A stretch of DNA of 64,000 nt from Candidatus Nomurabacteria bacterium (GCA_020632095.1 JACKGF010000001.1:70549-134548); one strand, 5' to 3'; shown: positions 4,827 to 62,401, counted from the stretch's first letter. Made by a program: numbers and translations. The notes: a model not told the origin generated them from the letters alone.

Positions 4827-4851
4827 GCGACTATTTTACTACATCTAGATT

Positions 4852-5436: not shown

Positions 5437-5450
5437 GAACAAGAAACATT

Positions 5451-25374: not shown

Positions 25375-25417
25375 TGCTCTAAATATTTAGTTGTCGACTA
25401 AGGTACAATGTATAGAC

Positions 25418-28270: not shown

Positions 28271-28322
28271 GGCTGTGGGTAAGCTTGAAAATATTTAGTA
28301 TTCACTTGTATAATGTATTGGT

Positions 28323-28796
28323 ATGTCCTTTCTTCAAAGACTCAAAGGCCGCGGTGTTAGAAACGATGAAGCTTCATTGCAGTCTGATGCTGAGGAGACC
28401 GCTGTCGACAAAGTCGCACAGCTTCATGTTGATGTTTACCAAACCGAGAGAATGATTGTTGTGTATGCTCAATCAGCTGGCGCAGATATGAATGACGTTC
28501 ATGTTTCAATTGAAGGTGATGCCGATATCGTATTAATTGAAGGGAAACGAGTTAGACCAGAATATATTGTATTTCCAAGAAAAGTAGTTAAGGGTGCGTT
28601 TGTAGCCGAGGAGTGTGTCTGGGGAGATTTTTATCGCAGAATCATTTTACCAGAAAGTGTTAATATAGATAAAGCTGAGGCAAAGATTAAGAACGGTGTT
28701 TTAATATTAGTTTTACCATTACTCAAGCCAAACGAAAAAGAAAAGGTTCAGTTAAAAGTAGTTGGAAGTCCAAATCCAAGGAAGCGAAGCAGTTAA
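28323..28796 (+). CDS. Hsp20/alpha-crystallin-family small heat-shock protein
   Basis: Alpha-crystallin domain pattern: LHVDVYQTERMIVVYAQSAG...DVHVSIEGDADIVLIEGKR...GDFYRRIILPESVNIDKAEAKIKNGVLILVLP. Confidence 0.8.
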   Translation: MSFLQRLKGRGVRNDEASLQSDAEETAVDKVAQLHVDVYQTERMIVVYAQSAGADMNDVHVSIEGDADIVLIEGKRVRPEYIVFPRKVVKGAFVAEECVWGDFYRRIILPESVNIDKAEAKIKNGVLILVLPLLKPNEKEKVQLKVVGSPNPRKRSS

Positions 28797-28813
28797 TCTT
28801 TTTAGTTCTTGTT

Positions 28814-30659: not shown

Positions 30660-30733
30660 CCGCGAGGGCATGAAGGGCCCTCGCGGTATACTTATAATAG
30701 GTCCAGATTCTATCTGGACGGAGGTAATTTCGA
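30660..30733 (+). promoter_or_regulatory. structured 5' region of the giant gene: GC-rich hairpin, -10-like tataat, then a second hairpin abutting a GGAGG Shine-Dalgarno
   Basis: 10-bp stem ccgcgagggc/gccctcgcgg (30660-30686); tataat at 30693-30698; hairpin gtccagat/atctggac (30701-30719); GGAGG at 30720-30724, 9 nt before ATG 30734. Confidence 0.4.
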
Positions 30734-33700
30734 ATGTATAAAGTAGACAAGAAAAGCCACAAAATATTGATTTTTTCAATCCTAGTTTCACTGATCATTT
30801 TCAGTGCGTATTTTGTGCACGCTCAGTTTTTCAGTAATGCTTACGTGGTTAGAACGATAAATGTTTTTCCGTCTGTGGTTGAGTCAGAGGGCTGGAATAA
30901 TGTTGAAACAATAACATTCCAAAACCTTGGAGAGTATGCCTTACTGCAGGAATTTAACACGATAAACTCTGCTACTTTAGATGAAGATTACTGGAGTCAT
31001 GATACTGGTACAAGTACGTCTGGTACACCTGAACCAGTAGTAAATGATAATGATGTTGAGGTAACTCCAGTGCCAGAAGTAGAGTTTGAATTTTCAGTCC
31101 CAAGTACCGGTGATTCAGTTGTACCGCAAGACATGATTGATTATGAAGTGCCAGTTGTGAGCCAAACTTCAACTGAGGATGTTCAGATTGTGGTTCCAGA
31201 ACCAGAAGTGGTTTTACCAGAAGAAGAGGCGGTTGAGTCTGGTACAACTACTGTTTTGAGGCGGGCGGGCTCATTATTTTCGTTGGCAGTTTCAACAGTT
31301 ACATCCTTACTTGATGGATCATCAAGTACAGAAGCAGTAAACCCTAGCGTTTCTCTTGGTGTAGCAGCTGAAGATTCAACTGCTTTGTCCGATGAAGTAA
31401 TTGAAACAACAATAGACGAAGCTGAGGTAGTGGAAGTTGTTCCAGAACCTAAAGTCCTAACCACTGAAGATGTTGTTGAAGACCCGGTTAATGAAGTTGT
31501 AGAAATTTCAGCTCCAGAAGAAAGTATTCCTTCCACTACTGTATCAATAGACACAGAGAAATTAGTTGAGGATATTCCAGTGGTTGAGACTGATCCAGTG
31601 GTTGAAACTATTGATGAGGTGGTAGATTTACCTGATGTCCTAGATATTATTTCTGATTCATTGACTAGCGTAGAGAGTGATGCTCATGTTGCATGTACTG
31701 ATGATTGTCAGCCATTTACTATTACATTGTCAGATTTCGGTTATCCGATTGGTGAAGGAGTGGAAGTAACCGGAGCCCAACTGCGACTATCTGTCGGAGC
31801 TGAAAAGAAACAAAGTCGAGAGCGAATCCCGTCACTTGACATTCGCTACACTATTGATGATGGTCAGACCTGGAATTCAGCCGGGTTGATCCTGATTGAG
31901 GATCAGGTTTCCAGTGGTATAAACGGGGGTTATTATTTGTTTGCGTTACAGGAGGTGATTAGTCAAGAGACTTTAAACACTCTAAAGGTAGAAATTTCGT
32001 ATCAAGATAATCCAGAGATAGTCAAAGGGTTGTTTGTTGAAAGTGCATGGTTGGAATTGTTTACCCTTGAAGCACCAGAGGAGCCGGTTTCAAGTGACAT
32101 TCTTGAATTGTTAGCCAATGATGGTTACGACGATACTTTAATGTCTGGAGATAAACTAATCTCACCAGAAGGAGATAAGATAGAATTTGATTTTACTGAC
32201 GATAACAAAAACGAAACTCTAATCATAAAGTCTGATAAAGTTTCTTATAGTGGTTTGTCTGAAGTAACAACCTACTTCAGTGTTACAAATACAACTGATG
32301 CTGATGATGAATTTTCACTTCAGACATATTTCCCAAGCGGAGTTGGTGAGGTTAAAAATATAGAAGTCTATAACCGCAACAAGCCTCGTGATGCGGTAAT
32401 TCCGGAGTATCGACCTTATGTCTATAACTGTGAAGCAGGTTGGGAGTATGCTGGTGAGTTTGTTCCTCAGACTTTGGAGGAATTATCGCAAAAATTAGCC
32501 GAATCATTAAGTGAAGAAGTAGATAATGGGTCACTGGTTGAACCTGATGTTCAGGTGGGTGTTCCTGAAGAGACAATTGAAACAAGTGTTGACGAAGGTG
32601 TTGAAACTAAAGATGTGCCGAGTCCTGCGGCTGATTCAAGCTCAGAAATAGAGGTAGATTTTGCTATACCAGAAACATCTCCTGCAGATGAAGCTAGTTT
32701 TGATGAGACTATTACCAACAACACTACAACAGTATTAAATTTACTAAATACGACTTCTAAGCTGTTACAGTCTGACATTATTACTACGACTGATGAGGCG
32801 TTGGTTAATGATGTGCAAACCGATCCAGTTGTTAATCTTAGTGAATCTGGTGATGAAAAAGTGCCAGCTTACACTTGTCGAAATACAAATGTAGTTAGAG
32901 AGTGTGATGAGCTTGATGGAGAAAATACAGCTTGCTTAGTTAAGCAAGTGAAAGTTGATGAGCATCCAGTCACTCAGTATGCCCCTGGATGGGATAAGGT
33001 GGACTTGGAAACTGGTGGTTTACCAAAGGCTAGTTTATTGCGTCGAATGGCTGAGTTTGTTGGTTTTGGTCCAGATAAAAAAGAAGTTCCTGACGCGTTT
33101 GAGGTTCGTTCTCATACGGGTAAGCAATATGTTGTTAAGGCTGGTGAGACCAAGTACTTCAAGATGGATATTTCATTCCCACCATTTAGTAATGGGGAAT
33201 ATTGGATTGAGGCAATTGGTGATAGTGAGTACGGGTTGCTCGATCCTTTTTGGTCTAGTCAGTGGCAATATCGTATGCCGATTAGGGTGCCAAATCCGAC
33301 TGGTTCGTCACAGTCTGAATACCAGATGTTCTTTGAACTAGATAGCTCTTTGACGGATTTTTGGAGTAATGTAAACAGTGACGGTTCAGATGTAAGGTTT
33401 GTACAAGAGGTGGTAAAAGGCAATCTGGTAGATGAAAATAATCCAGAATTCGATAATCCATACGATAAAGATTGGACGGGACGTATGGCGATTACAATTC
33501 CAGCCACTAGTGTCAGTACTGGATTAGCTGATTTCCCGGTGTACATTGATATGTCAACCCTCGGTCCGGCGTTCTGGAGTGGGGTTGCTTCTGATGGCCG
33601 AGATATTCGCATTACTAAACAGGATGGTGTATCTGAGTTGCCGTATGATTTGGTAGAGATTGATACAACAGCTGAGACTGGTGAGTTGCACTTCCTAGCT

Positions 33701-36700
33701 AATGCTCTCAGTAGTGTTTCTGATAACACCTTCCATATTTATTACAACAATCCTTCCGCTACTGCTTACGCGTCTACCAGTCAGTATGGCTCACAAGCTG
33801 TTTGGGCAAATTATGAAGCGGTCTATCACTTCTCTGACGACCCGACGGCAGTGACAAATGTTATTACTGACTTCACTGGTAATGGACAGGAACTAGAAGT
33901 AGAAGGAGCGGCTTTGGCTACCACTACTGGTGCCATGGGAACAGCTCTTGATATGACTGGTTCGACTGGAGTCTTGCGTGACGTGGGAGACGATTGGGGA
34001 TGGACAGCTGGTGACGACTTGGTTTCTTCTGGTCTATACTTCCAGTCAGCTGTTTCTGGTGAAGCACTTTGGGAATTTGGTTCTACTGCTAATCCAAATT
34101 GGGCTGGTTATATGCCTTGGTATGCCAACGCTGATCCAACGATTGGTCGCGGTTACATGTATTTTGGCTTAAACCAAAATGGCACCTGGAACCGGAACAC
34201 AGCAGTTTGGCATCACTTCACCACCATTGCACCGTCAACGGCTGGTAATCTTCATGGTATTTATGATAATGGTGTACTTGAACTTAGTGGTACTCAGAAT
34301 GTGACAGATCCATCCAACCTTGGTGGTTTACAGGTTGGTCGATGGACAACCGGTGGTTCATATAACGGTATTATTGACGAATTGCGCTTTGCCGCAGACG
34401 ACACGGTTTATACTCCGGGTTGGATCAGTACTGAACACCTAAACCAGACAGACCCGACAACCTTTTATTCAACTAGTACCAAGTTAACTGGAGGGGGAAG
34501 TAGGGAAGGTTGGTATTCAACTAGTTGGGAAAATCGAACCAAATTCACTTTAGCTCAATCATCTGACTTGACTGATTTTCCTGTTTACCTAGACCTAGCT
34601 ACTTTGGGAGATGATTTCTTCAATAATGTGGCTAGTGATGGACGTGACATTCGTATTACAAATGGGGACAATACTGCAGAACTACCGTTTGAACTCGTTT
34701 CAATTGATACTGGAGCTAAAACAGGGGAGTTATACTTCAAGACCGATCTAACCGCCGACGCTTCGACTGACTACTATATTTATTACAACAACAGTGATGC
34801 CGCTGCCTACGCTAAGACCGCTATTTATGGTGCAGAAAATGTCTGGACAAATGGTTACGTGGCAGTGTATCACTTGGAAGAAGATATGGCTGGTATTAGT
34901 AATGCTAATGTTTACAAAGATTCCACTTCTAATCAGTACGATGGTGATGATGAAAACAGTTCAGACGGAAAGCTGGGATTGTTTGGCGCTGGTCAGGAGT
35001 TTGGTGATAGTCAGAATGACTACTTGAGCTTACCAAAAGAAGTGCTGGACGGTACGACCAATGTGTCGGTTTCTTGGTGGCACAACTCTTCAACTACTGG
35101 TGATATGACTATTACCAGTGGAGCTAATAGTAGTGATGCAAATGAATTCTGGGATAGATTAAATAATAACAATCGTGTTTACATATATTCTCAAGGTCAG
35201 CAAGAGTTAGCTACTATCGATAATAGCGATACCTATAATGATGGCACATGGCAGTACTACATGACTATTCGTGACTACGATGCCCAATACAAATCAATGG
35301 TGCGCAACGGCGTACTAGATGCGCAAAGTCCGATTGTATCTAATCCAGTCATTGCGGCTCATACGATTGACAACGGTGGTTTGGTTATTGGTCAGGATCA
35401 GGACTCGGTCGGGGGAGGATTTTCATCGTCTGAAAACTTTGAAGGTTTCCTTGATGAGCTTCGCTATGCGGATGTGGTTCGCGACCCGAGTTGGGCAGCG
35501 GCTGAGTATGAGAACATGGCTAATCAGTCTAGCTTCATCTCTACTTCAACCGCCGAAACCTTGTCCGCCACCAATTTTGTAGAGCTTGATTTTTGGATTC
35601 AACACTTCGATGACACAGCTGACGAGGCTGATATTTGGGTGCAACTGGAGTCACTACCAGCTGGCGAAGATACTATCATTTATATGTACTATGGTAATAG
35701 TGGGGCGGCTAGCGCTAGTGATGAGTTGGCTACCTTCTCGTACAGTACTTCAACTGATATCTATTATGTGGTTGATGACAGTGGAGCTTCTAGTGTAACT
35801 GTGGAAAGTCTGGTTGATAATAATGAGGTCGCTATTGATGGTGGTACTCCGGTTAGTTTAAATCAAGGCGAAAGTACAACTTTTGGTACTTTTACTGGAG
35901 CTTCGGTGATTAGTGTACTAGGTCCGATTTCAGGAACTGTCACCGGTGCTTCGTCAGATGGTAGTGATATGATTGTACCAATTAGTTTTGCTACCACTAC
36001 GTTTGCCATACCAACCAACCGTAATACTAATCGTTGGTATATTGTCTCACCCTTTGCTAGTTCAACCATTAGAACCTATATCGCAGCCGCTGGCTCACCG
36101 TCGCAAACCCTCAATGCTGCGACTGGTACAGTTGTGACTTCCACGACTGAGGTGCCTAACTCAGGTCAAGGAGTTGATGGTAGTGGTTTAGTAATTGACG
36201 CTACTGCACCGGTTTTAGCTATTCATCGAAGTACCAACCCAGGTGATGGTCTTACCTTATATCCTCCAACCAATCGCGATTTGTTCGGTGTCACTTCTAA
36301 CTTTATGCACGTGTCAGCTTTGGCTAGTAACTCTGACCCAACTGTTACTTGTTCGACTGGGGCGGGAGGAACGATTACTGGTATAACCAGAGGTGATCAT
36401 GAGGCGGATGCTTCTTGTACCGCGGCCGCCGAGGGGGCAGGTAGTGCGGTTAGACTTAGTGGACAAGCTAGTCCAATAACCGCTCTCCAACAAGCTGACT
36501 CAGATGGTACTGATTCTTCTATGTATTGGCCACAACATGAGTTTGGTACTCGCTACGCCATGACCAACTCAACTGGTTATGTGGCTGTGGTCTGTTCACC
36601 TCGTTTTGGTTCGGTTGACCTGGAGGTTCAAGACACACTGGGTAATACTGTTAGTACTGGTACTTGTACGCCATCAGGTTCTAATCCAGGGAAAGCTTAC

Positions 36701-45700: not shown

Positions 45701-48700
45701 TCAACTTTCTGGCGTTTCTCAGGCGGAATCGGCGATCTGTATGGTGAAGCTTTTGACAATGATGATGGTGATCCAGGTTCTATTCAATGGGATGATAGTA
45801 ACTTCGCTATTTCAATTTCCGGTACAGTTTATAGTGATGATGGTGTAACTCCGGCTACCGCTCCACTCTGTAACAATTCAACCGAGGTTGTTACAGTGGT
45901 GCTTGATGGGGTCACTACCTATACTGCACCTTGTGATCCGCTGGACGGAACCTTTACAGTTAGTGGTATTTCTTATACTGGTGAGCCGCAAATCGTAACT
46001 TACATTAATAGTGAGGCAACTGCTTCACAAGTGAATGTTGGAATCTATGACGAAATTACTGGTAATGGAAATGTAACAAGTAACTTAATGACAGTGTCTC
46101 GACCAGCGGTAGTTGATGGTTCTGTCCTAGTACTCATTGCTGGTAAGGATGACGATATAAACTTCAACGCGCCACCAGCTGGCTGGGTAGCGGTAGATGT
46201 GCTTGGAAACACTACTGGTGACAATATTACTACTGGTATTTGGTACAAGGTGGTGGCAACTGCGGGTACTGAGCCAGCTACCTACGATTTTTCAGTGACT
46301 GACGCCGGGGAAGGTTTTAGTTATTGGATGGGAAGTTTGATTAATGTGGATACCAGTACTCCGATTGATGTAGCTAGTGTTTGGTCAAAACTGCAAAACC
46401 AGACTGACCCAGTGGCTCAGGGAATCAATACAGTCACCAATGGTGCTTTGGTATTGTCTGCTTGGTACTCATATATTGATACAGAAACTGTTGCCCCAAT
46501 CTACGACTGGTCAGCTAGAGCGGAAAATATTCTTGATTCTGCTAACAACAACCTTACTGTCGTATCGCGCTTAATGACGACTGCTGGTGATACAGGAAGT
46601 ACCTCGATTAGTGGCGTGATAAGTACACGTGAGACTCATGTTGGACAATTTGCTTTCCGACCGGCCAGCTCACCAACCGCCACTGGTACGATGGTAGCAG
46701 CAGCTGTCACCAAAACTCCGCTTGGAAGTACAGGAGCTCCGTATGAGACTGTTGAGTTACGAGACCAAAGAAATGGTTTTGGTACTGTTCTTAATGGTGC
46801 TAATATTGTGGTCAATCGGCCCGCCGTACAAAATGGTGACGTGATGTTTGCAATTATTGGTAAGGAAGATGATTTCAGTATTACACCACCTGCTGGTTGG
46901 GTGATTGGTGCGGATAGATTGGAAGCTACCGGTAATGATATGTATAGTGCCATCTGGTATCACGAAGTTACCAATGCTGGTAGTGAACCGGCTACTTACG
47001 ATTTCTTAAGCAATGATGACACGATCGAGGAATATTCTTATTGGGTGGGTTCTTTCTCTGGTGTCGATACTACTAATGTCTTTGATGTCACTCCAGCTTG
47101 GAGTAACTTACAAAATGATTCCTCACCAGCGGCTCCAACCTTAACTACTACCAAAGCCGGAGCTTACGTACTAGCGGCTTGGTATGTGATTGATGATGGG
47201 GCTATGGATATGCCAGCTGCACCATGGAAGACTTTGGCTCAGGACTTGCAAGTAGCCAATCGGCTACTTGCAGTGTCTGGTCGGCCAATGCCAACAGTGG
47301 GAGCTACGGGTGCCGCCGTATTGACTGGGGGAAGTGTCGATGACGTCAATGTTGGTCAATTTGCTATTCGTCCAGCGCCAGTATCAGTAGCCAGCAATAT
47401 TACCGATATGGATTTGTATCAAGATCGTGTGATTGTCCGACATGAGGATATTCTGCCGCTGACCATTGCTGACATGACTGTTTTTGATAATGGTGATGAT
47501 AGCGACTTACCGTTTACCGCTTCTACTGGGTCACCAGACTTACTAACAGTTCTTTCCGGTAGTGGTTTAGTAGTTTGGAATAATCGAACTTTTGACTCTG
47601 GTGGACAAGTTGTTTTGGCTGGTGCCGGAGCGACTAGTGCGGATGGTTCATTGTTGGTCAATCAATCAGGAATCTTTAAAGCTAATGGTTCGGACGGAGT
47701 TTCTATTGGAGGTTCACTGTATCTTGATACAAGCGGTAGTTTTGTTGGAGCAACTAGTAATGTTGATTTTACTGCTACTAATGCTGGTCAAACAATCGGT
47801 GCAGCTGGCAGTGCGACTATTACCTTCAACGATATCAGCTTCAGTGGTGTGGATGGAAATTGGGCTGTACAAACCCCAATTGTTTCGGAGACTGGTATTA
47901 ATGTTGCAACTGGTACGTTGTCTGGAACCAATAATATTACGGTCAATACGGGTTCATTTAAAGGAAATGGTACCGTAAATATGACTGGAGGAACTACCTT
48001 GGTTAAGCGCGCAAATACGTTTGGTGGTACGACTCCTTGGACTCTATATAACTTAACTCTTGGCGATGGAACACATAGCGAGATTACTACACCGGCTACA
48101 AACGCTACAACTACTGTTAGTAATGTATTAACAATTGCCACTTCACACTTCCTAAACGCTTATGGTTCAGTTTGGGACTTGCAAGGAAGCGGTAACCCAT
48201 TTGTCGAAAACGGAACATTTGTAGAAGCTACTAGTACGGTTCGTTATAGTGGAGCGACACCAAATATTAAGCGTACAGCCTACTATAACCTAGTAGTTGA
48301 TAACGACGGGGCCAGTACTGTTGTAGCAACTGCACCGACTACTGGTTTACAGGTACTTAAGAACTTCACGGTTGGAGCACTAGGAACATCAACTATTAAT
48401 GTCACAACCAATGATCCGACTTTTGGAGTGGGAGGCAAGGTATATATCGGAACAAAAGGAACTTTGATCGCAAGTAACTCACAAACATTAACCGCTCAAG
48501 GTGATTGGGAAAATGATGGAACCTTTACTTCTAGTGGTGGTACCGTTGCTTTCACCAAGTCTTCCGGTAGTGCGACTATCGCCGCTGGAAACTCTACGTT
48601 CGGTAATGTAAGTATCACCGGAACAGCCAACTATACAATTTCAGAAAATGCGACCACTACCGGTAGTCTAACTCTTAGTGCTGGTACCTTTACTTTGGCT

Positions 48701-51700
48701 AGTGGTCAGAGATTAGCGGTGGGTGGTAGTTTTTCTTCGACTATGTCAAATGTAAATACTACTTGGACTGGTACAACTTTGTATTTGTATAGTGGTACTT
48801 CATACACTATTAATGCCAAAACAAAATCTGAAACCTTTGAAAATATTATTACGGGAGATGGTACACATCCTAGAGTTTGGAATGCAACTACGACATCTGT
48901 AGTAACAGACGGAGCCAGTTCACTCTACTCGATGAATCATCAGGGAGTAGTTGGGTCACTTATGATCTATGGTGATTATGTTAACTCTTCATACAGTGAT
49001 TACTGGGATTACGCTAAGAACTTTGATGGAGTAGCTCTTGGTTCTTCAAGACAAGCAGTGGTGACAATTGAAAATGGTGGTTCAGTAAAATATCAAGGTG
49101 GTAGTTTGGAACTTGTTGGATCTACTACCGCATCTACTACAGTGGCGGTTGAAGGTGGCTCTGGTACCTATGACTTTACAATTGGCGGTACTACGGCAGT
49201 GAATATGAATTATTATCAATTCCGGAATACAACCATTGATGGTCTTGTCTTTACGGGTGCGCCTAGTGTCTCAGATATTTCTCACGGAGATTTTGAGGTG
49301 GCGATTGATGGTGGTTCTACTATGACGGTGGGAGGAGCCGTTATAACGGCTAATCCGGCCTTGAACTTCACTGGTATCAGAATGGCGACTACGACGGCTA
49401 TTAATGCTTATAACGTGACAGCGACTGGTACCAGTGCTAGTGCTTGGCGGTTTGTAAATGTGGTTGGAAACCTTGATGGTGAAGCAAAGGATAATGATCC
49501 AGGGGGAGATCCGGGTTATGTTACTTGGCAAGATTCAGCAGCGATTATTAATATTTCTGGCACGGTCTATAGTGATGAAGGGTCTAGTGTTTCAGCTGCT
49601 TGCGATGGTACTACCAATAACGTGATTTTGAGTGTTCACGGTCTATCAATTGCTTCAACCACTTGTAACGGTGATGGGTTAGGTGGAGGAACTGGTGACT
49701 ACTCTTTCGTTGGTGTTAATTTCGGCTTAGGAAATACCTTAACTGTTTACATCGGTGGTGAGACAGAAAAGGCAGCGACTGTGACAAAGGATCCGATTTC
49801 ATCTCTAAGTAATATGGACTTGTATGAAAATCGAGTGATTGTACGTCACGAAAGTGCAGCGGCTATGACTATTGCCGCGATGTCAGTGTGGGATAGTTCA
49901 GATGATGCTGATATTCCATTTACGGCTGTAAATGCGGGTACAGACACTCTAGACTTGCCAGCCGACTTTAAATTGTTGGTTTGGGATAGTAAGAAATTTA
50001 CTCCAGCTGGTAATGTAACTGTGCCAGGGGGTGGTTCTGGTAGTGCCTTTGATGGAACCATCGAACTTCAAGACAACGCTCTGTTCACTGCAGCCAATGG
50101 TGAAACACACACCTTTGGCGGAAGCTTCATTAGTGGCACTAATGCTGTCTTTAACGCTGCTCAGTCTTCCGTGACCTTCACCTCTGCGGTGGCTGGCCGA
50201 ACTATAAACATTAATAATGATGATTTCTACAATCTGACCTTCAATGGGGCTGGTGATTGGACAATAACTGACTCTCTAATAAATGTTGGGGGTAATCTTA
50301 CTATTACGGCTGGTGATATTGTGCTGCCGACTGGTGCAACAACTATTACTGGTTCGTTCAATAATAATGGCGGAACCTTTAATGCTAATGGCGGCTCTCT
50401 AGTCTTCAACTCCACAGCTTCAGGCAAGACTGTTAAGTTTGGTGGTTCTGACGCTAACACCGTTCGCTTTGCTGGTACTGCAGGTACTTGGACAATGTCT
50501 GACACAAATGCCACTGCTACAGACTCATTTACTGTAGCGACAGGAACAGTCACTTTGCCAACTGGCGTGCTGACGGTGGGAGATGATTTTGTGGTCAAAT
50601 CGGCTGTGACTCACGCTGGTGGTGAAGTTAAGGTAACTGGTACCGGAGGAGGAAATCTGGTCACTTTGGCGGCTAGTACGCTTGGGTCTTTGACTATTGA
50701 TGCAGGGGCTGGTGATTACACTCTGACTGATGCTTCTGCTGCTTTGACTAAAAATCTAACAATTCAAAGTGGTAGCTTTACAGTCGGGACAGGCACTCTT
50801 TCTGTTGGAGGTTCATTCGATGCTTCAGCTGGAACCTTTACGCAAACTGCTGGAACGGTGTTGTTTAACTCAAGTGATACAGGAGAGATTATCAATGCGG
50901 GTGCCAACATCTTCTATAACCTAGTACTGGCTGGAGCTGGTGGTGGCTGGACGATTGTTGAAAATGCTACCACTACTAATAACTTTACTCTGAGTCTCGG
51001 TTCATCCTTTACCTTAAGTTCCGGAAAAATATTAAGCATCGGTGGAGTATTTACCAATACTCTTGGTGGCTCTGCCACCAACTGGACTGGTTCAACTTTG
51101 GCACTACGCAGTGGTACTGAGTATGAAACAAATGTTAAAACTACACCGGTTGAGTATTACGACACCTTGATCCTTGATCCTAATACTGATATCAGTAGTT
51201 GGAATTCAGTAGCGACCACGACAGTTATACCAAGTACTTCATCATGGTACTCACAAGATCATGGCAGTGTTGATGGAAGTCTTTATGTTTACGGTGATTA
51301 CCATATTGCTACCACCACTGAGTACTGGAGTCGAGCGACTGATTTTGATGGGGTGGCGCTTGGTTCACCACGAGCTGTATCAGTAAAAATTGCAGATGGT
51401 TCGGTTATTACGGTAGAGGGTGGAGGACTGAGAATAATCGGTACAGCCGCTGCGACTTCAACCGTCGCCAATCAAGGTTCTGGTGACTACACCTTCAAGG
51501 TTAAGGGCGGAATATTCAATGCTAGTTATTATTCATTTAGAAATCTTGATATTGACGGTCTAAGGCTAAGTGGTGCACCAACTATTACCTCTTTAAGTAA
51601 TGGAGACTTTGCTCAGGCTGAAAATTCATCAAAATTAATCACTGCCTCATCAACTGTTATTAATGCCAATGCTTCTCTGGTCATAACTGATACATCTTTT

Positions 51701-54133
51701 GCCAATGCTGGTTATACAGGGGGAACAAACATCGCTCTTAATGCAACAACCACGAATAGTTGGTCGGTGACTGGTGCATACGGAAACTTATGGGGAGAAG
51801 CCTATGACATCGACGGAACAGATGACTGTAGTTCAATTCGTTGGGACGATAGTGCTTGTCTCTTGACTGAACAAACCACTTTCCGCTGGAGGAATGATGA
51901 TGGAGGGGAAGGGGCACCAGCCAGTACTTGGTATAACGGAAGTTGGAGCGCTCGAAAACGAGTCAGAGTAATTAACGCCGATCCTACTGCTTACACTGAT
52001 GTGGCCGTTAAACTAACCGTAGCGTACGATTCTGATATGCAGACAGACTTTGATGAATTACGATTTACCGATAGTTCTGGTACTAATATTATTCCGCACT
52101 GGATAGAGAGTTACACTACAGGTGTAACAGCCCAAGTCTGGGTTAAAGTACCAACTCTAGCCACCAGCAGTGCGACTGAGATATTTATGTACTACGGTAA
52201 CGTATCGGCTACCTCAACTAGTGATCCAAGTAACGTGTTTGAGATTTACGATGATTTTGAGGACGATGACATTGTTGAGTATTCAGGGGATACATCTTTG
52301 TTTAACACGGCTGGAACCTTTGCTTATGGGGGAGGTTTTGGCCTTGATACAGCTGGACACGAAAGCTCTAAAGCGACAGATGGTATTGCGCGAACTGATA
52401 TTACAGTTGCTCAGGGTCAAATTATTCGCTTTATGCAGTATGTTGATACAGGAGTCGGTTCTGGCGATGAGGTTTGTACTTTGTTTGGTGTGCAGTCTCC
52501 GGTGACTATAAATAATAACTACGCTGTTTGTATCGAGCAGTATGGTGTGGATAGAATATCTCTGGTTAAAAATGCTCAAAACGCTGATACTTCTGGTACT
52601 GTCTTAGCTTCCGCTAATGTTTCTTATAGTACCGGTTGGTACGAGGTTGAAGTGGACTGGAAAACAACTAACCAAATGGATGTGTCATTATTTAATTCTG
52701 CTGGAACATTAGTTGCTACTACATCTGCAATCGACAGTACGTATACTTCAGGAGGAATCGGATTTACTTATTGGGGTCAGAACGGTGGTTGGGATAGTTA
52801 TGTATCGTGGCCACGCACTAAGACAAAGCCAACTGCCTATTTCGGTGCGGAGCAAGTAACAGGAGGAGCTACTTGGGCGGCTGCTCAGGACACAGCGGTT
52901 GGAGGCTTTGCTTTTGGTGCTGTGGCTCGGCTTCGAATTGGTGTAGAGAATACAGGTTTACCGATTACTAACCAAAACTTCAGATTGGAATTTGCACCAA
53001 AATTAACTGCTCCAAGTTGTGAGGGGGTAGATGCTGGATCGTTTGTGGCGGTGCCAAATGTGGCTAGCTGTGGTTCGTCTGCAATTTGTATGAAAGCCTC
53101 AGCGCATATTAGTGACAATGCTAACACTACTGATCATTTGCTAACTGAGGCGGGATTATTTGTGGCAGGTAAGACAGTGACAAATAGTAGTAATCAGACC
53201 TCAAATCTCAATATTGACCAAAATCGTTACACCGAGCTTGAATACGCTATTACTCTGACTGTTAATGCTACTAACGACGCTTATTGTTTCCGAGTGACTG
53301 ATGGTGGCTCGAGTTTGGATTCATACGCCAAATTAGCTGAACTGACTCTGGCTTTTGATCCAGTATTGGGTGCTGTATCGTTAAATAATGGTATGGACAT
53401 TGCTCTTTCTCCTGGTGCTACAACTACAATCATAGCTACAACAACTGTTTCAGATTATAACGGTGTGGCTGACTTGAATGTGGCAACCACCACTTTCTAC
53501 AAAACATCAGCTACTGCCAGCTGTACTCCTGATAATAATAATTGTTATGTTGCCTCTAGTACTGCCTGTGTGTTCTCTGACTGTACAGCTACCAGTTGTA
53601 CCCTTACTTGTAGCGCTGACTTCCAATTCCATGCTGACGCGACTGATGCGGACGGAGGTGAAGAATGGTTTGCCTTTATGGAAGTATCAGATATGTCGGG
53701 GGCAACAGACTTTGATACATCAATGGGAGTTGAAGTTTTGACACTTCGAGCCCTTGAGGTGCAAAATGCAATTGGTTACGGAACAGTTGATATCAATCAA
53801 AACACTGGAACCTACAATCCATCAGTTTCGCTACAGAACTATGGTAATGAGGCTATTGATGTCCAGATTGCTGGTACGGATATGACCGACGGGGTAGCGT
53901 CAGTTATTCCAGCCTCAGAGCAATTGTTCTCAACTTCAACCTTCGATTATGTTTCTTGTAGTAGCTGTAACTCATTGTCAGTCACTGGTACTAATGTTGA
54001 GGTCGATTTGAGTAAACCAGTGGTAGATACGCCATATGTGTCAGATGATATTTACTGGGGAATTGAAGTACCGTTTGGTACTGCTAGTAACCCGCACAGT
54101 GGTGTAAATACCTTTACCGCAATTTCTGATTAG
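30734..54133 (+). CDS. giant (7799 aa) secreted adhesin-like surface protein: six DUF2341+LamG (Laminin_G_3-like) modules, FN3/Ig-like domains, beta-helix-like repeat tracts, tandem ~290-aa modules and a Cys-rich C-terminal domain
   Basis: The ORF is uninterrupted, with an SD and N-terminal signal anchor MYKVDKKSHKILIFSILVSLIIFSAYFVHA. Recurrent modules read TDFPVY[IV]D[LM]STLG..FW..V..DGRDIR[IV]T...ELP.DLV.ID..A.TGELHFLA...YY.N....A...S.YG..AVW..Y.AV.HF, followed by a jelly-roll ending IDELRFA. Module starts fall near nt 33.5, 34.6, 41.1, 42.7 and 44.7 kb, with a variant near 52.0 kb. The FN3-like motifs WRVRADDPGG and WRVRAKDPNGG are also present. Confidence 0.85.
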   Translation: MYKVDKKSHKILIFSILVSLIIFSAYFVHAQFFSNAYVVRTINVFPSVVESEGWNNVETITFQNLGEYALLQEFNTINSATLDEDYWSHDTGTSTSGTPEPVVNDNDVEVTPVPEVEFEFSVPSTGDSVVPQDMIDYEVPVVSQTSTEDVQIVVPEPEVVLPEEEAVESGTTTVLRRAGSLFSLAVSTVTSLLDGSSSTEAVNPSVSLGVAAEDSTALSDEVIETTIDEAEVVEVVPEPKVLTTEDVVEDPVNEVVEISAPEESIPSTTVSIDTEKLVEDIPVVETDPVVETIDEVVDLPDVLDIISDSLTSVESDAHVACTDDCQPFTITLSDFGYPIGEGVEVTGAQLRLSVGAEKKQSRERIPSLDIRYTIDDGQTWNSAGLILIEDQVSSGINGGYYLFALQEVISQETLNTLKVEISYQDNPEIVKGLFVESAWLELFTLEAPEEPVSSDILELLANDGYDDTLMSGDKLISPEGDKIEFDFTDDNKNETLIIKSDKVSYSGLSEVTTYFSVTNTTDADDEFSLQTYFPSGVGEVKNIEVYNRNKPRDAVIPEYRPYVYNCEAGWEYAGEFVPQTLEELSQKLAESLSEEVDNGSLVEPDVQVGVPEETIETSVDEGVETKDVPSPAADSSSEIEVDFAIPETSPADEASFDETITNNTTTVLNLLNTTSKLLQSDIITTTDEALVNDVQTDPVVNLSESGDEKVPAYTCRNTNVVRECDELDGENTACLVKQVKVDEHPVTQYAPGWDKVDLETGGLPKASLLRRMAEFVGFGPDKKEVPDAFEVRSHTGKQYVVKAGETKYFKMDISFPPFSNGEYWIEAIGDSEYGLLDPFWSSQWQYRMPIRVPNPTGSSQSEYQMFFELDSSLTDFWSNVNSDGSDVRFVQEVVKGNLVDENNPEFDNPYDKDWTGRMAITIPATSVSTGLADFPVYIDMSTLGPAFWSGVASDGRDIRITKQDGVSELPYDLVEIDTTAETGELHFLANALSSVSDNTFHIYYNNPSATAYASTSQYGSQAVWANYEAVYHFSDDPTAVTNVITDFTGNGQELEVEGAALATTTGAMGTALDMTGSTGVLRDVGDDWGWTAGDDLVSSGLYFQSAVSGEALWEFGSTANPNWAGYMPWYANADPTIGRGYMYFGLNQNGTWNRNTAVWHHFTTIAPSTAGNLHGIYDNGVLELSGTQNVTDPSNLGGLQVGRWTTGGSYNGIIDELRFAADDTVYTPGWISTEHLNQTDPTTFYSTSTKLTGGGSREGWYSTSWENRTKFTLAQSSDLTDFPVYLDLATLGDDFFNNVASDGRDIRITNGDNTAELPFELVSIDTGAKTGELYFKTDLTADASTDYYIYYNNSDAAAYAKTAIYGAENVWTNGYVAVYHLEEDMAGISNANVYKDSTSNQYDGDDENSSDGKLGLFGAGQEFGDSQNDYLSLPKEVLDGTTNVSVSWWHNSSTTGDMTITSGANSSDANEFWDRLNNNNRVYIYSQGQQELATIDNSDTYNDGTWQYYMTIRDYDAQYKSMVRNGVLDAQSPIVSNPVIAAHTIDNGGLVIGQDQDSVGGGFSSSENFEGFLDELRYADVVRDPSWAAAEYENMANQSSFISTSTAETLSATNFVELDFWIQHFDDTADEADIWVQLESLPAGEDTIIYMYYGNSGAASASDELATFSYSTSTDIYYVVDDSGASSVTVESLVDNNEVAIDGGTPVSLNQGESTTFGTFTGASVISVLGPISGTVTGASSDGSDMIVPISFATTTFAIPTNRNTNRWYIVSPFASSTIRTYIAAAGSPSQTLNAATGTVVTSTTEVPNSGQGVDGSGLVIDATAPVLAIHRSTNPGDGLTLYPPTNRDLFGVTSNFMHVSALASNSDPTVTCSTGAGGTITGITRGDHEADASCTAAAEGAGSAVRLSGQASPITALQQADSDGTDSSMYWPQHEFGTRYAMTNSTGYVAVVCSPRFGSVDLEVQDTLGNTVSTGTCTPSGSNPGKAYFNNGNGTDGDAVNYTGGHQIVSTNGEPFYMMYEDVSVDQDEKNAAGPVQGRKFDGIVRDIYQFGNQEIANPTEYEQLSYLWYQNSLSNTPTSTWENSPGEYLVEAQNITGAGAVDNGDVLRLRINAVGSNATATANTQAFNLQYAAASTGQCSTATAWNDVGQQGSTTAVFNGYNNSGVADGEDLVTSTLASTTVLGTYEERNYSDFIPSQVNPGDVVEWDWVITANDIAVNSNYCFRMVKATGEVFETYTAYPELETVGPPSTPVNLLFFDNENTAVLTPVLEFYAIDNSNDDINYQIQIDDDYDFSSVVLDKNSDTNFLQFENLAVPSDKSPFNSGQRVRFTGLTGLTPTTTYYWRVRADDPGGSATTSDWSEPFSFTTDTTVTVSEWMQTTGRQFDTNSLTSLSTSSGAVTMIGSTGQMTSTPIYFNNGSVGNAWGEVSWNDTETSGTILISVQYNNNGSWTLVPDSLIPGNSLGTSTSPINLLELDTSTYGQIRLVANFAGTTLSLQDWKVKWGLRVETPDLGDLFDNQKTPDLLPVFDFVSSDPQGDDLEYEISFSTDYNFITSSSTYNSSVDAGFIDTVAGTSSSPFGSGNRVTYTKQAGSPFVDGNTYWWRVRAKDPNGGDSWSPWSVQDSFTVDVATTLSTWFQTTRAQFSQGVLDGTIATSGGAVIVSEDIGEYGTATLTNNNWLTINTQRDYTNMVVTASPEYAGPLWSGARTPRVRNKTSNSFEIKVDDYTDAFSGSTVVDYMVMEAGDWIIQDGGSGVRILADTVSVSGVQNQPYANNVGTDITFSPAFSAAPVALTTVSSDNETAWVATNVDDGTTSTAEVTTTNMGIALSLSRSGTTHSTPEDVDYMVIEPGSGTNKGVKFKSMNSTDNVDDYQTNGGYGQALAAGFSVAPGVTVIANNGTDGGDGGFAYKNLSGSQTAGSLFMSIHEMGATADQHTQEIVSIMAFENSSGLIARLNAGNLSGTFAGEDIIFSDGAGPKFDNFAWNDSTPATSEILYQIEYEVSDGVYALIPDSQIPGNSTGTTTSPIDLTNVDIDAYPIIRAFATLTCGGGSCPQLDDWQLEWSEGVNMSGTLKEYDRTTNVATGTVKVAVNGSPVAGTGSVVAGVWTFNNVTAFNGDIINVWVDGAAESEEAVAAFVYDGLGDISGVELFEQHLSISSDEDGTVTNALLALYDNSVSANEDIFYEVDASNNLVVCGVGSCADANIYVGPGDKYIASAVTAVSVTAHDLINDGSIELDTNTFNISGSWDNNATSSTDTATINMTAATGTESVSSTETPLKFHNMSFGSGAGDATFTIPTDLDLSGNLTVASGTLDRGSYKINLAGSLLTGAGGYWVGTATTTFDGGSGKTWTDNNPVKQNVGDVVIDGASAFVSVTTDVAAYDVTIGYNDTLAGGSAHTIYVAGDWTNNGTFNAGTSRVEIVVDDRTYPPVVPGSADWYADSNFDKRLAVVVDSNEVPGTLTDFPIFVDLSTLGNSFWTDVAGNGKDIRVTSDDGQTELPHDLVAIDNTAKTGELHFLADSVSGSTSTTFYIYFDNPSATAPSAGSQYGSEAVWKGYEAVWHFNEVPSLGATLHDATGNGRNLVVDTEALATTSGQMGVAVDLAGSTGILTDDDYSWTAGDKLVSSGWYYQAAASTEALWSWGTSNDYIFMPWYSGTTGYFRFGSSAGGTNYVISPRNGTIWHHFSTLAPTSTGATMNVYEDSILRDTTPLQVDDPTAGPLQIGRYQTAGSLEGSIDELRFSTTTQSTNWVQAEYSNQKHPTIFYATTSVQTYVPDLVIDEATHDILAGGSSFYDLYFNDATTSPAFVSTSAVVSNDFTIASGTVALPTGKLTIGGSFLNTGYFMHNNSEIEFNGAGAETITLSGTDFFNVLYDVTFSGSGSWVITDTNATTSNDFIINSGTVTFPSGVLNIGGTLDVNSGGFNANGGTVYFTSAVNESVVTLGSSFNNVIFGSSEPAEQWYDQAWNYRTAIVIASSSVYSTLTDFPVYVDLSTLGTDFWDNVTLDGRGLRMTQGDGITEVPIDLVSINVGAQTGELHFLANQLSSTADTTFYLYHNNSDALTAEADSTYGSQAVWAGYAAVYHFNDDPTLGVTDESGHGKDLSPLVGTPVISTGKIGNALDTTGSSILMGDSDWTWTAGEDLVSSGWYYQTAVDAGALWQWGDATGSNNDTWLAFMPWYTGTTGYHRFGVTTGDTYSFARTGTEWHHFTTNGMATPGLTNEIFEDALVRDTLTQTVTNPTNTGLKVGRYQTGNYYNALIDELRFATTSRSYEWVQTEYANQSDASSFYTSNTETYLEVVPSFTLNESVTDVDGDVTIQYANLVSPSSNFKIGGSALNIFSSYDPNNATTTFDSTDTGETVQFGVGAFYNLAFDGVGGGWTIATTTVNNDASLLNGYDFTLQSGTVLSVGGRFTNDFNAASTTWAGTTLSLSGGDYTVTHRLDSGDDYAKVIVSGDSDIVIWNSSISTSSVRDNSSLYLPDYGGSNGLLRIYGEYTRSSGTEYWSYATDFDGTDLTGGGERPVTVEIGRAAEVTMATGTTLSIIGDSAASTTIDAITGIYDLTVNAGTLDATYFTVTGAGPEGLHLTNGTILNQLSSAEFNVAGGRSGITADADTINAQPSTEFSLVNFATSSFTSIYEPAWTEQVVVTIQSSVVTEDLTNYPVYINLADLGDTFWSNVQSDGRDIRVTTNKGIELPIDLVEINAVAKTGELHFLASNISSNENTAFYIHFGNPSATAYAQSDEYGANAVWIGYEAVYHFNEDPTVRITDVSGNGRDLLPTVGTAATTTGLLGTAIDTTAGNVRLENTGWTWTPGEDLISSGLYFQSAFDTGALWQFGSGNGTNNGSYLAFLPWYDNATRGYHYFGITTGGDYNFARNNTIWHHFTTIGRAADGALNEFYQDNILRDTVAQITSSANPTNTGLRIGAYQTTTYMDIDIDELRFATTTRSAGWIDTQYRNLTNRSTFYATSSAQTTTYNVTADGVPSTFWRFSGGIGDLYGEAFDNDDGDPGSIQWDDSNFAISISGTVYSDDGVTPATAPLCNNSTEVVTVVLDGVTTYTAPCDPLDGTFTVSGISYTGEPQIVTYINSEATASQVNVGIYDEITGNGNVTSNLMTVSRPAVVDGSVLVLIAGKDDDINFNAPPAGWVAVDVLGNTTGDNITTGIWYKVVATAGTEPATYDFSVTDAGEGFSYWMGSLINVDTSTPIDVASVWSKLQNQTDPVAQGINTVTNGALVLSAWYSYIDTETVAPIYDWSARAENILDSANNNLTVVSRLMTTAGDTGSTSISGVISTRETHVGQFAFRPASSPTATGTMVAAAVTKTPLGSTGAPYETVELRDQRNGFGTVLNGANIVVNRPAVQNGDVMFAIIGKEDDFSITPPAGWVIGADRLEATGNDMYSAIWYHEVTNAGSEPATYDFLSNDDTIEEYSYWVGSFSGVDTTNVFDVTPAWSNLQNDSSPAAPTLTTTKAGAYVLAAWYVIDDGAMDMPAAPWKTLAQDLQVANRLLAVSGRPMPTVGATGAAVLTGGSVDDVNVGQFAIRPAPVSVASNITDMDLYQDRVIVRHEDILPLTIADMTVFDNGDDSDLPFTASTGSPDLLTVLSGSGLVVWNNRTFDSGGQVVLAGAGATSADGSLLVNQSGIFKANGSDGVSIGGSLYLDTSGSFVGATSNVDFTATNAGQTIGAAGSATITFNDISFSGVDGNWAVQTPIVSETGINVATGTLSGTNNITVNTGSFKGNGTVNMTGGTTLVKRANTFGGTTPWTLYNLTLGDGTHSEITTPATNATTTVSNVLTIATSHFLNAYGSVWDLQGSGNPFVENGTFVEATSTVRYSGATPNIKRTAYYNLVVDNDGASTVVATAPTTGLQVLKNFTVGALGTSTINVTTNDPTFGVGGKVYIGTKGTLIASNSQTLTAQGDWENDGTFTSSGGTVAFTKSSGSATIAAGNSTFGNVSITGTANYTISENATTTGSLTLSAGTFTLASGQRLAVGGSFSSTMSNVNTTWTGTTLYLYSGTSYTINAKTKSETFENIITGDGTHPRVWNATTTSVVTDGASSLYSMNHQGVVGSLMIYGDYVNSSYSDYWDYAKNFDGVALGSSRQAVVTIENGGSVKYQGGSLELVGSTTASTTVAVEGGSGTYDFTIGGTTAVNMNYYQFRNTTIDGLVFTGAPSVSDISHGDFEVAIDGGSTMTVGGAVITANPALNFTGIRMATTTAINAYNVTATGTSASAWRFVNVVGNLDGEAKDNDPGGDPGYVTWQDSAAIINISGTVYSDEGSSVSAACDGTTNNVILSVHGLSIASTTCNGDGLGGGTGDYSFVGVNFGLGNTLTVYIGGETEKAATVTKDPISSLSNMDLYENRVIVRHESAAAMTIAAMSVWDSSDDADIPFTAVNAGTDTLDLPADFKLLVWDSKKFTPAGNVTVPGGGSGSAFDGTIELQDNALFTAANGETHTFGGSFISGTNAVFNAAQSSVTFTSAVAGRTININNDDFYNLTFNGAGDWTITDSLINVGGNLTITAGDIVLPTGATTITGSFNNNGGTFNANGGSLVFNSTASGKTVKFGGSDANTVRFAGTAGTWTMSDTNATATDSFTVATGTVTLPTGVLTVGDDFVVKSAVTHAGGEVKVTGTGGGNLVTLAASTLGSLTIDAGAGDYTLTDASAALTKNLTIQSGSFTVGTGTLSVGGSFDASAGTFTQTAGTVLFNSSDTGEIINAGANIFYNLVLAGAGGGWTIVENATTTNNFTLSLGSSFTLSSGKILSIGGVFTNTLGGSATNWTGSTLALRSGTEYETNVKTTPVEYYDTLILDPNTDISSWNSVATTTVIPSTSSWYSQDHGSVDGSLYVYGDYHIATTTEYWSRATDFDGVALGSPRAVSVKIADGSVITVEGGGLRIIGTAAATSTVANQGSGDYTFKVKGGIFNASYYSFRNLDIDGLRLSGAPTITSLSNGDFAQAENSSKLITASSTVINANASLVITDTSFANAGYTGGTNIALNATTTNSWSVTGAYGNLWGEAYDIDGTDDCSSIRWDDSACLLTEQTTFRWRNDDGGEGAPASTWYNGSWSARKRVRVINADPTAYTDVAVKLTVAYDSDMQTDFDELRFTDSSGTNIIPHWIESYTTGVTAQVWVKVPTLATSSATEIFMYYGNVSATSTSDPSNVFEIYDDFEDDDIVEYSGDTSLFNTAGTFAYGGGFGLDTAGHESSKATDGIARTDITVAQGQIIRFMQYVDTGVGSGDEVCTLFGVQSPVTINNNYAVCIEQYGVDRISLVKNAQNADTSGTVLASANVSYSTGWYEVEVDWKTTNQMDVSLFNSAGTLVATTSAIDSTYTSGGIGFTYWGQNGGWDSYVSWPRTKTKPTAYFGAEQVTGGATWAAAQDTAVGGFAFGAVARLRIGVENTGLPITNQNFRLEFAPKLTAPSCEGVDAGSFVAVPNVASCGSSAICMKASAHISDNANTTDHLLTEAGLFVAGKTVTNSSNQTSNLNIDQNRYTELEYAITLTVNATNDAYCFRVTDGGSSLDSYAKLAELTLAFDPVLGAVSLNNGMDIALSPGATTTIIATTTVSDYNGVADLNVATTTFYKTSATASCTPDNNNCYVASSTACVFSDCTATSCTLTCSADFQFHADATDADGGEEWFAFMEVSDMSGATDFDTSMGVEVLTLRALEVQNAIGYGTVDINQNTGTYNPSVSLQNYGNEAIDVQIAGTDMTDGVASVIPASEQLFSTSTFDYVSCSSCNSLSVTGTNVEVDLSKPVVDTPYVSDDIYWGIEVPFGTASNPHSGVNTFTAISD

Positions 54134-56076: not shown

Positions 56077-56078
56077 GG

Positions 56079-61411: not shown

Positions 61412-61445
61412 AGGGAATTTTTTTCGATAATAAGAGAACTTGTCC

Positions 61446-62399: not shown

Positions 62400-62401
62400 C
62401 T

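Follow-up and report, generated by a model that had tools for sequence, protein, structure and literature searches.

A 23.4-kb gene in a Candidatus Nomurabacteria contig encodes an intact giant protein of a conserved Paceibacteria family, probably a lectin-like surface fibre

This study examined a 64,000-nt stretch of DNA from a Candidatus Nomurabacteria bacterium (GCA_020632095.1, JACKGF010000001.1:70549-134548; hereafter, the window), in which one reading frame of 23.4 kb raises two questions, namely whether a gene of this size is real and what its product might do. An earlier note on this DNA had proposed an uninterrupted gene for a 7799-amino acid (aa) protein with six modules, each a DUF2341 domain followed by a Laminin_G_3-like (LamG) jelly roll. 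Our analysis revealed that the giant open reading frame (ORF) is a real, uninterrupted gene. With moderate confidence, and on the basis of homology and structure models, we read its product as an intact giant cell-surface protein of the ~7400-7800-aa type, conserved in Paceibacteria (Parcubacteria-type lineages within the candidate phyla radiation, CPR, or Patescibacteria), that would act as a lectin-like adhesin or fibre. The gene and its translation signal are as follows.

30734..54133, plus strand: giant gene, 7799 codons plus stop (ORF read from the sequence)
30720..30724, plus strand: Shine-Dalgarno sequence GGAGG, 9 nt 5' of the ATG (read directly from the sequence)

The extent and product length given earlier were exact, and the proposed Shine-Dalgarno sequence was found. 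The gene contains one stop codon, the terminal one, whereas the alternative forward frames contain 387 and 961 stops across the same interval; at the base composition of the gene, 7799 stop-free codons would arise by chance with a probability of ~1e-209. The guanine-cytosine fractions at the three codon positions are 0.50, 0.48, and 0.33. The internal similarity of the modules had also been taken to mark a likely site of assembly collapse or expansion. This concern was not supported because the DNA repeats are short and of low identity and the orthologues are colinear: the longest exact DNA repeat inside the gene is 18 nt, the paralogous modules share at most 84% DNA identity over at most 89 nt, and no tandem repeats were found among these DNA repeats. 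On sequence grounds, we regard the paralogous modules as old. Transfer RNA and Rfam scans of the whole window gave no matches, and promoter and terminator scans gave no signal above chance.

The predicted product has a mass of 827 kDa and a pI of ~4.05, is rich in Thr, Ser, Gly, Ala, and Val, and had no NCBIfam match. Its N-terminal region comprises the following segments.

30734..30826, plus strand: Sec-type signal peptide or signal anchor, aa 1-31, with a candidate signal-peptidase site between VHA and Q (hydropathy)
30992..31648, plus strand: acidic stretch 1, aa ~87-305, rich in Val, Glu, Pro, Thr, and Asp (composition; no high-scoring segment pair with the orthologue P0161)
31649..32443, plus strand: conserved N-terminal stretch A, aa ~306-570 (43-65% identical to orthologues)
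32444..32869, plus strand: acidic stretch 2, aa ~571-712 (composition; no alignment to the full-length orthologue)
32870..33433, plus strand: conserved stretch B, aa ~713-900 (self-comparison and orthologue alignment)

Hydropathy analysis located the sole hydrophobic segment of the protein at aa ~7-35 (KILIFSILVSLIIFSAYFVHA, followed by Q), in agreement with the N-terminal export signal or anchor claimed earlier, and the 7440-aa orthologue P0161 has an equivalent N-terminus. Beyond this signal, no membrane segment or anchor was detected by hydropathy or by checks for LPXTG, repeats-in-toxin (RTX), two-partner secretion (TPS), and prepilin features. The LPX[TSA]G motif occurs nowhere in the protein, nor does the prepilin cleavage motif (G followed by [FM]T[LI][IV]E); the search for an RTX array returned one lone GGxGxD match and no Pfam HemolysinCabind match; and neither Pfam nor NCBIfam found a TPS/haemagglutination activity domain (FhaB/TpsA). 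An acidic stalk of ~800 aa had been described for this region. Acidic sequence is indeed present (22% Asp plus Glu against 1.7% Lys plus Arg in aa 36-330), but it forms two separate stretches that alternate with conserved stretches A and B, both 43-65% identical to orthologues. Stretch A had no significant Pfam match (best, CHB_HEX_C at E 0.066), and a weak DUF2341-like match lies within stretch B at aa ~840-891.

The reading of the protein as lectin-like depends on its repeated modules, the boundaries of which were set by chunked self-comparison plus motif positions.

33461..34489, plus strand: M1, DUF2341 plus LamG-like jelly roll, aa 910-1252, ending in IDELRFA (PF10102, E 7e-06)
34505..35563, plus strand: M2, DUF2341 plus pentraxin-like jelly roll, aa 1258-1610, ending in LDELRYA (Pentaxin, 25.6 bits)
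35582..35740, plus strand: further DUF2341, aa 1617-1669 (Pfam, E 5.5e-13)
41066..42061, plus strand: M3, DUF2341 plus LamG-like jelly roll, aa 3445-3776, ending in IDELRFS (PF10102, E 1.4e-05; self-comparison)
42629..43630, plus strand: M4, DUF2341 beta-sandwich plus LamG/ConA-like jelly roll, aa 3966-4299 (AlphaFold model)
44645..45667, plus strand: M5, DUF2341 plus LamG-like jelly roll, aa 4638-4978 (self-comparison)
51881..54130, plus strand: conserved C-terminal module, aa 7050-7799 (homology and AlphaFold model)

The Pfam search bore out the DUF2341 assignment, with PF10102 scores of 98.1 and 91.8 bits in the two halves of the protein against a cut-off of 23.4 bits. Individual matches fell in M1, in M3, at aa 1617-1669, and at aa ~7105-7179 (E 6.3e-22). 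M4 and M5 are counted as DUF2341 modules because they are 45-58% identical to M1 and M3; M1, M3, M4, and M5 are mutually ~43-58% identical, and M2 is divergent. Two or three DUF2341-like segments lie outside the module pairs, one of which is a solid Pfam match.

The Laminin_G_3 label was only partly sustained. Pfam gave no PF13385 match for either half at E<=0.01 or for M1 or M3 alone at E<=1, and a direct PDB sequence search with both halves returned only weak pentraxin matches for M2. M2 also reaches Pentaxin (PF00354; 25.6 bits against a cut-off of 25), which we take to be a related ConA-like family, and the other modules do not. The fold, however, was recovered by a profile (A1) built from the five modules and 29 database homologues, which matched the PDB entries 4qvs_A (1.3e-17) and 5hon_A (1.4e-15), neurexin LNS (2e-11), and laminin LG (1.3e-05). 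The AlphaFold (AF2) model of M4 has a pLDDT of 90.4 and a pTM of 0.91, and its C-terminal ~220 residues superpose on AbnA domain 4 (5hon_A; TMt 0.73). It also matches the lectin-like subdomain of the botulinum and tetanus neurotoxin Hc region (BoNT/TeNT) and the trans-sialidase lectin domain, and weakly the lectin module of the minor pilin PilC (7oa8); these structural matches are carbohydrate- or ganglioside-binding jelly rolls. Because of the PDB profile matches, the M4 model, and the presence of PF13385 in module homologues (30-36% identity, ~96% coverage), the predicted LamG/ConA-type jelly roll in each module holds at the superfamily level.

The C-terminal module was modelled over 750 aa with a pLDDT of 92.6. 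The model is all-beta, and we read its strand pattern as a DUF2341 sandwich, a ConA/CBM66-like jelly roll, and about three further beta-sandwich domains. The jelly roll compares with the CBM66-like 4b1m at a TMt of ~0.6, and the model also matches S-layer and macroglobulin-type beta-sandwich strings. Because its DUF2341 sandwich and jelly roll form a sixth, divergent pair at aa ~7050-7380, the earlier count of six modules is acceptable as five canonical modules plus this one. Not every module ends in IDELRFA, as had been stated: the motif [IL]DE[LF]R[FY][AS] occurs five times (aa 1214, 1573, 3740, 4264, and 4942), in its exact form in three modules and as LDELRYA and IDELRFS at the other ends, and the sixth pair has no IDELR motif. 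The Cys-rich character claimed for the C-terminus was evident, with 16 of the 36 Cys residues in the last ~770 aa.

Between and beyond the modules lie FN3-like units and several repeat classes.

37508..38776, plus strand: two FN3/Ig-like units, aa 2259-2420 and 2518-2681, 39% identical, with the motif W(R/W)VRA (Pfam)
42122..42613, plus strand: ~77-aa repeat tract, aa 3797-3960 (self-comparison)
43652..44659, plus strand: ~340-aa repeat unit U1, aa 4307-4642 (self-comparison)
46037..47377, plus strand: two tandem ~210-aa modules, aa 5102-5311 and 5340-5548 (self-comparison)
47393..51865, plus strand: long repeat-rich tract, aa 5554-7044 (self-comparison; in every orthologue examined)

The FN3-like proposal was backed by Pfam (Ig_Rha78A_N, 5e-12, and Pur_ac_phosph_N), and self-comparison revealed a further pair of paralogous segments at aa 2391-2506 and 2945-3067. 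U1 has paralogues at aa 5929-6272 and 6700-7044, giving three ~340-aa units in all; U1 has no Pfam or PDB assignment, and a profile of the unit found only 2a5z_A in the PDB (E 0.034, a weak match). The tandem pair was present as proposed, but each module measures ~210 aa instead of ~290 aa. The two are 44% identical to each other and have relatives in 169 representative proteins at E<=1e-3, many of them stand-alone proteins of 225-260 aa. In ten such relatives, Pfam left the domain without a match (one has FN3 elsewhere), and we regard it, from these comparisons, as a real domain family that lacks a Pfam model. The labels 'Ig/Cna-B-like', attached to the two 'ISGTVYSD' units (aa 4981-5068 and 6226-6312), and 'beta-helix-like' were not borne out when the sequence was searched against Pfam and the PDB; the claimed beta-helix tracts (aa ~3790-3960, 4290-4620, and 5556-7020) had no Pfam match at E<=1.

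The size of the protein is matched in its relatives. The C-terminal module has ~85 near-full-length homologues at 41-73% identity, mostly proteins of 700-1300 aa that bear the names Kaiserbacteria, Paceibacterota, Parcubacteria, and Minisyncoccia. In one-genome-per-species contigs, 426 species genomes were found to encode a protein related to the C-terminal 750 aa. The best 80 of these 426 loci were retrieved; their names are mostly of Patescibacteria/Paceibacteria type, and the closest among them are Ca. Nomurabacteria HK-STAS-PATE-30 (73%), PATE-25 (72%; complete chromosome CP060229.1, 994,774 bp), and UBA3466 (70%). Among the 57 distinct loci having a full 10-kb upstream flank, the ORF that carries the module stays open through all 10 kb in 53, and it therefore encodes at least 4080 aa there. 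Loci L006, L007, L010, and L013 each gave a single gap-poor alignment of ~4080 aa, 61-67% identical to aa ~3720-7799, and P0161 is colinear with the window protein from the signal peptide to the last residue at ~40-70% identity, the main difference being that M5 is missing. These comparisons assign the window protein to a conserved giant-gene orthogroup present in at least 426 species genomes. Proteins of this size are rare overall, as had been remarked, but the remark does not extend to this lineage, where the giant gene is conserved.

A comparison of orthologues for module number, which the earlier note had recommended, revealed that this number differs between lineages, because P0161 and the more distant orthologues at L008 and L011 lack M5, and others have no colinear M3-M5 match and lack the tandem modules (L016, L032, L046, and L081). 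The portion corresponding to aa ~5550-7799 is kept in all orthologues examined, including the last four.

Several relatives carry the gene in broken form. The orthologous locus of GCA_041389005.1 is colinear over ~23.3 kb with ~16 frame changes, L002 and L005 have two or three each, and L004 is interrupted by a run of N. We consider sequencing or assembly indel errors a more likely cause of the frame breaks than pseudogene formation. The lengths of the short database homologues are misleading because their N-termini consist of internal repeat sequence, without a signal peptide, and the genes are cut by contig ends, frameshifts, or the run of N. Two other explanations were rejected. The giant is not a fusion of a normally short protein, given the internal N-termini of the homologues and the upstream ORFs open over 10 kb. 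Because L001, L002, and L005 all change frame ~1000 aa from the C-terminus, a programmed frameshift conserved at that place was also weighed; the positions of the shifts differ, however, and most genomes have none. The only real exception to the giant arrangement is the L003/L041 type, in which a separate C-terminal gene of ~1290 aa has a signal peptide of its own plus an ice-binding-like domain.

Some observations on these deposits stand apart. Frame-broken giant orthologues at L001/L009/L086 (JAWKSR010000001.1), L002, L005, and L087, with ~16 changes in 10 kb at L001, appear in protein databases as strings of 50-1200-aa 'genes'. Ice_binding matches among the relatives fall in an N-terminal domain missing from the window protein, as we read the N-terminus of P0030 and the tblastn coordinates. 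The L003/L041 contig (JBLIMJ010000001.1, Ga0535658_0000208) was deposited as 'Acidimicrobiales bacterium' and has the full Paceibacteria-type gene cluster at 49-79% identity; because the contig carries this complete cluster, the bin label is doubtful and probably wrong.

With regard to function, we infer a carbohydrate-binding adhesin or fibre as the most economical reading, and the corresponding claim of the earlier note stands as an interpretation of domain content. The giant protein would be exported by Sec and tethered to the envelope through a signal anchor that stays uncleaved or through contacts between its C-terminal module and co-conserved neighbours. It would project as a long fibre, the lectin-like modules of which may bind glycans of a host cell or surface, and this binding could provide the attachment that such ultra-small and metabolically dependent bacteria are believed to need. 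The adhesin reading agrees with published views: of 149 Patescibacteria proteins longer than 4000 aa, 82 have FhaB and/or DUF2341 domains, and adhesion or host interaction was inferred for the FhaB-containing giants (PMC11809585); Patescibacteria ConA-like lectins are likewise thought to mediate attachment (PMC12911398).

Several findings weigh against this reading. Approximately two thirds of the giant protein had no family match in the searches run, including aa 1670-2258, 2680-3440, 3797-3960, 4307-4642, and 5554-7044. The distal binding tip is the variable part of many adhesins, and the C-terminus is the most conserved part of this protein, so that it is doubtful how the fibre is oriented and which end binds. 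Non-adhesive proteins, too, can have LamG/ConA folds. Finally, the gene has a conserved linkage to a MacB-type ATP-binding cassette (ABC) transporter, which is unusual for simple adhesins. The neighbouring genes concerned are listed below.

25391..30355, plus strand: upstream surface genes kept in relatives, namely a dockerin protein (25391-27325), HSP20 (28323-28796), and a cohesin protein (28814-30355)
54139..55728, plus strand: FN3-repeat protein, 529 aa, with a signal or transmembrane segment (60 of 61 loci)
56536..59355, plus strand: MacB/LolCDE-type ABC pair, a 440-aa ATPase and a 404-aa MacB_PCD+FtsX permease (61 of 61 loci)
59471..61354, plus strand: p627, with an N-terminal hydrophobic segment (58 of 61 loci)
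61440..63505, plus strand: p319 (signal peptide, no family) and p381 (Cys-rich repeat, Big_6, and dockerin), the last conserved cluster members

Downstream sequence of 9 kb or more was available for 61 loci, and 54-61 of them retain the order giant, FN3 protein, ABC ATPase, permease, p627, p319, p381, even where the C-terminal module of the giant has diverged to 45% identity. The FN3 gene starts 5 nt past the stop codon of the giant gene. The ABC pair is the best-conserved part of the cluster (~46-90% identical across loci, mostly 71-90%), and the NCBIfam matches of the permease place it with MacB and LolC/E. For p627, neither Pfam nor NCBIfam gave a family; its aa 322-620 are 30% identical to aa 7546-7798 of the giant (E 7e-18). 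The non-ABC members all begin with a hydrophobic N-terminal segment. Upstream, genes for DinB, p384, and a WxL-interacting-like protein are also kept in relatives.

Because the conserved C-terminus and the MacB-type linkage fit a simple adhesin poorly, the giant could instead be a component of a conserved envelope machine, a reading that we hold possible but on balance doubtful. The MacB-type ABC pair would then drive extracytoplasmic work through mechanotransmission, as in MacB, LolCDE, or FtsEX, with the giant, the FN3 protein, and p627 as its targets or intermediaries; it could extend, release, or remodel the fibre, or extract host-envelope material. The gene order retained despite divergence of the giant, the conservation of the ABC pair (up to 90% identity), the 5-nt junction, the last ~250 aa shared with p627, and the placement of the permease are all consistent with such a machine. 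Synteny alone, however, is no proof of physical or functional coupling; the FN3 and ABC genes need not be co-transcribed because an 800-nt repeat-filled spacer separates them; and no publication on such a system was found in the literature searched. In its full form, which we propose only tentatively, this would be a Paceibacteria-wide seven-gene envelope apparatus, undescribed so far, in which ATP hydrolysis by the ABC pair is coupled to fibre deployment or action on the host cell. A tentative parts list comprises the giant lectin fibre, the FN3 protein, the ABC pair, membrane-anchored p627, p319, and the dockerin protein. If true, its action could include uptake of host envelope material needed by these lipid- and nucleotide-auxotrophic bacteria.

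A purely structural role, as an S-layer-like coat, sheath, or spacer with no specific binding function, appears unlikely. The protein is acidic, its modelled parts are all-beta and multi-domain, its C-terminal model resembles S-layer and macroglobulin-type strings, the best PDB match of the module profile (4qvs_A) was deposited as an 'S-layer domain-containing protein', and the family is strongly conserved across many species. S-layer proteins are nevertheless normally far smaller and very abundant, which makes a 7800-aa monomer an improbable lattice unit; six lectin-type modules that vary in number fit binding better than packing; and Pfam scans of the giant protein found no SLH or other wall-binding domain. 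The flanking cohesin and dockerin proteins, a GH18 gene within the window, and the fold matches to AbnA domain 4 and CBM66 would accord with a cellulosome-like polysaccharide-degrading scaffold or enzyme, its LamG/ConA modules being carbohydrate-binding modules or glucanases. We give this very little credence: Pfam, NCBIfam, and PDB sequence searches found no catalytic domain in the whole protein, the GH16-type motif E-[ILV]-D-[ILV]-x-E does not occur in it, and the giant itself has no cohesin or dockerin. A PilY1-like tip adhesin of a type IV pilus, a role proposed for DUF2341 proteins of archaeal pilus loci, is disfavoured and rated still lower. DUF2341 has been linked to pilus-tip adhesins (PMC4858521), a prepilin N-methylation domain occurs together with DUF2341 in the homologue P0094, and the M4 model weakly matches PilC; against this, the prepilin cleavage motif is absent from the giant protein, and neither the scanned window ORFs of at least 150 aa nor the conserved neighbours include a pilin or pilus-assembly gene. 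The least probable reading of all, and one that we scarcely entertain, is an assembly artefact in the form of a chimeric join or a repeat collapse or expansion. The protein is internally modular and the gene lies in pieces in several relatives' assemblies, but those breaks are frameshifts in an otherwise colinear gene or a run of N, the window ORF is colinear over its full length with independent genomes, and exact internal repeats do not exceed 18 nt.

Proteins of this kind are already on record, both as giant DUF2341-bearing surface proteins of Patescibacteria and as fragments of orthologues in public databases. The window protein resembles the giants of PMC11809585 in its Patescibacteria-type lineage (here judged from the names of the closest relatives), its length above 4000 aa, and its multiple DUF2341 domains; it differs in having no FhaB domain, and whereas that study found no full-length homologues for its own giants, the window protein has a 426-genome orthogroup with a fixed C-terminal module and neighbourhood. 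The entries named 'DUF2341 domain-containing protein' from Paceibacterota, Kaiserbacteria, and Parcubacteria (for example P0001, P0002, and P0009; loci CP060229.1 and JACKGI010000002.1) are direct orthologues, with 45-73% identity over the C-terminal 750 aa and the same downstream genes; they are mostly 700-1300-aa fragments produced by contig ends and frameshifts, whereas the window copy is complete. Stand-alone DUF2341 plus Laminin_G_3 proteins of ~350-400 aa (P0112-P0147) have the same module at 27-36% identity over ~95% of its length, but only once, whereas the window protein iterates it five times inside a giant. What is added here is the demonstration of a conserved giant-gene orthogroup, a conserved seven-gene cluster, and a clean reference copy of full length. 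The literature searched, the coverage of which was incomplete, yielded no account of the family or cluster, so that this is absence of evidence only.

More distant giants share the general plan. The Gram-negative adhesins SiiE, LapA, and MpIBP of RTX/type I secretion systems (T1SS) are likewise very large, acidic, modular, and mostly beta, with ligand-binding modules on a long extender. The window protein, in contrast, has no RTX repeats or C-terminal T1SS signal, carries an N-terminal Sec-type signal, lies beside a MacB-type rather than an HlyB-type ABC transporter, and has heterogeneous domains where those adhesins have ~100 near-identical Ig repeats. Ebh/Embp, Giant1-5 of Apilactobacillus (PMC12863079), and the 7651-aa adhesin of Mobiluncus (PMC10619420) are modular surface fibres of similar size, exported by Sec in cells of monoderm type; unlike these Gram-positive giants, the window protein has no LPXTG or C-terminal membrane anchor and has another domain repertoire. 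The giants of Omnitrophota (bioRxiv 10.1101/2023.11.21.568195) also occur in ultra-small or predatory uncultivated bacteria and come from curated metagenomes, but they are far larger (tens of thousands of aa) and tied to cell-wall degradation, whereas no degradative domain was found in the window protein.

Paceibacteria genomes are ~1 Mb, and because the closest complete relative (CP060229.1) has 0.99 Mb, the giant gene would occupy ~2.4% of such a genome and the surface-protein island (~22.5-63.5 kb of the window) ~4%. A costly protein present in hundreds of species, with a fixed C-terminus and fixed neighbours, is a prime candidate for a molecule of host or surface contact, and if the adhesin reading is true, it may mediate such contact for the mostly uncultivated Paceibacteria. 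The size and ubiquity of the family are under-appreciated because protein databases mostly hold fragments of 700-1300 aa, and the window supplies a clean full-length reference. Several domains of the protein lack a family model (the tandem module of ~210 aa, the repeat unit of ~340 aa, and the C-terminal module).

Among the neighbouring genes, the ABC ATPase (56536-57858) matches ABC ATPase models only over aa ~1-240, its C-terminal ~200 aa being without a match; the 440-aa length recurs in L002, L003, and L005, and the protein has 435 aa in L001 and 448 aa in L004. Plus-strand surface-protein genes at 6460-30355 and 62360-63505 encode SpaA-like/PG_binding, CAP, DUF285, GH18, WxL-interacting-like, two dockerin, and cohesin proteins, a set that points to a cell-surface assembly of cohesin-dockerin type in a CPR bacterium. 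Amid these genes, a 1734-aa ORF at 11400-16604 carries a Peptidase_S74 domain (aa 1535-1591, E 6e-20). This domain, an intramolecular chaperone of the endosialidase/tail-fibre type, is characteristic of phage tail fibres or spikes that form trimers.

Tandem repeats fill the 800-nt spacer that separates the FN3 and ABC genes (55700-56430). Copies of the ~30-nt sequence with which the FN3 gene ends (GGGTTAAGAATATCAGCGGAGGAGGTTAGG) lie at 55700, 55848, 55996, and 56397, three ~63-nt units lie at ~56085-56330, and two identical 34-aa minus-strand ORFs are a by-product of these repeats. Elsewhere, the 24-mer GGACTGGGTAGGGTATACAGCTTG occurs six times against none expected by chance, in arrays at 27315-27830 and 63488-64000 that begin at the 3' ends of the dockerin-containing genes 25391-27325 and 62360-63505. 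Rfam has no family for the GGACTGGGTAGGGTATACAGCTTG-containing repeats. The ~90-nt units of these arrays have the core GTTCCAGCGATTTG in common with the repeats at 55.7-56.1 kb. The GGACTGGGTAGGGTATACAGCTTG repeats could be elements like repetitive extragenic palindromes (REP) or miniature inverted-repeat transposable elements (MITE), repeats of the small-RNA or terminator kind, or scars left where 3'-end cassettes were exchanged.

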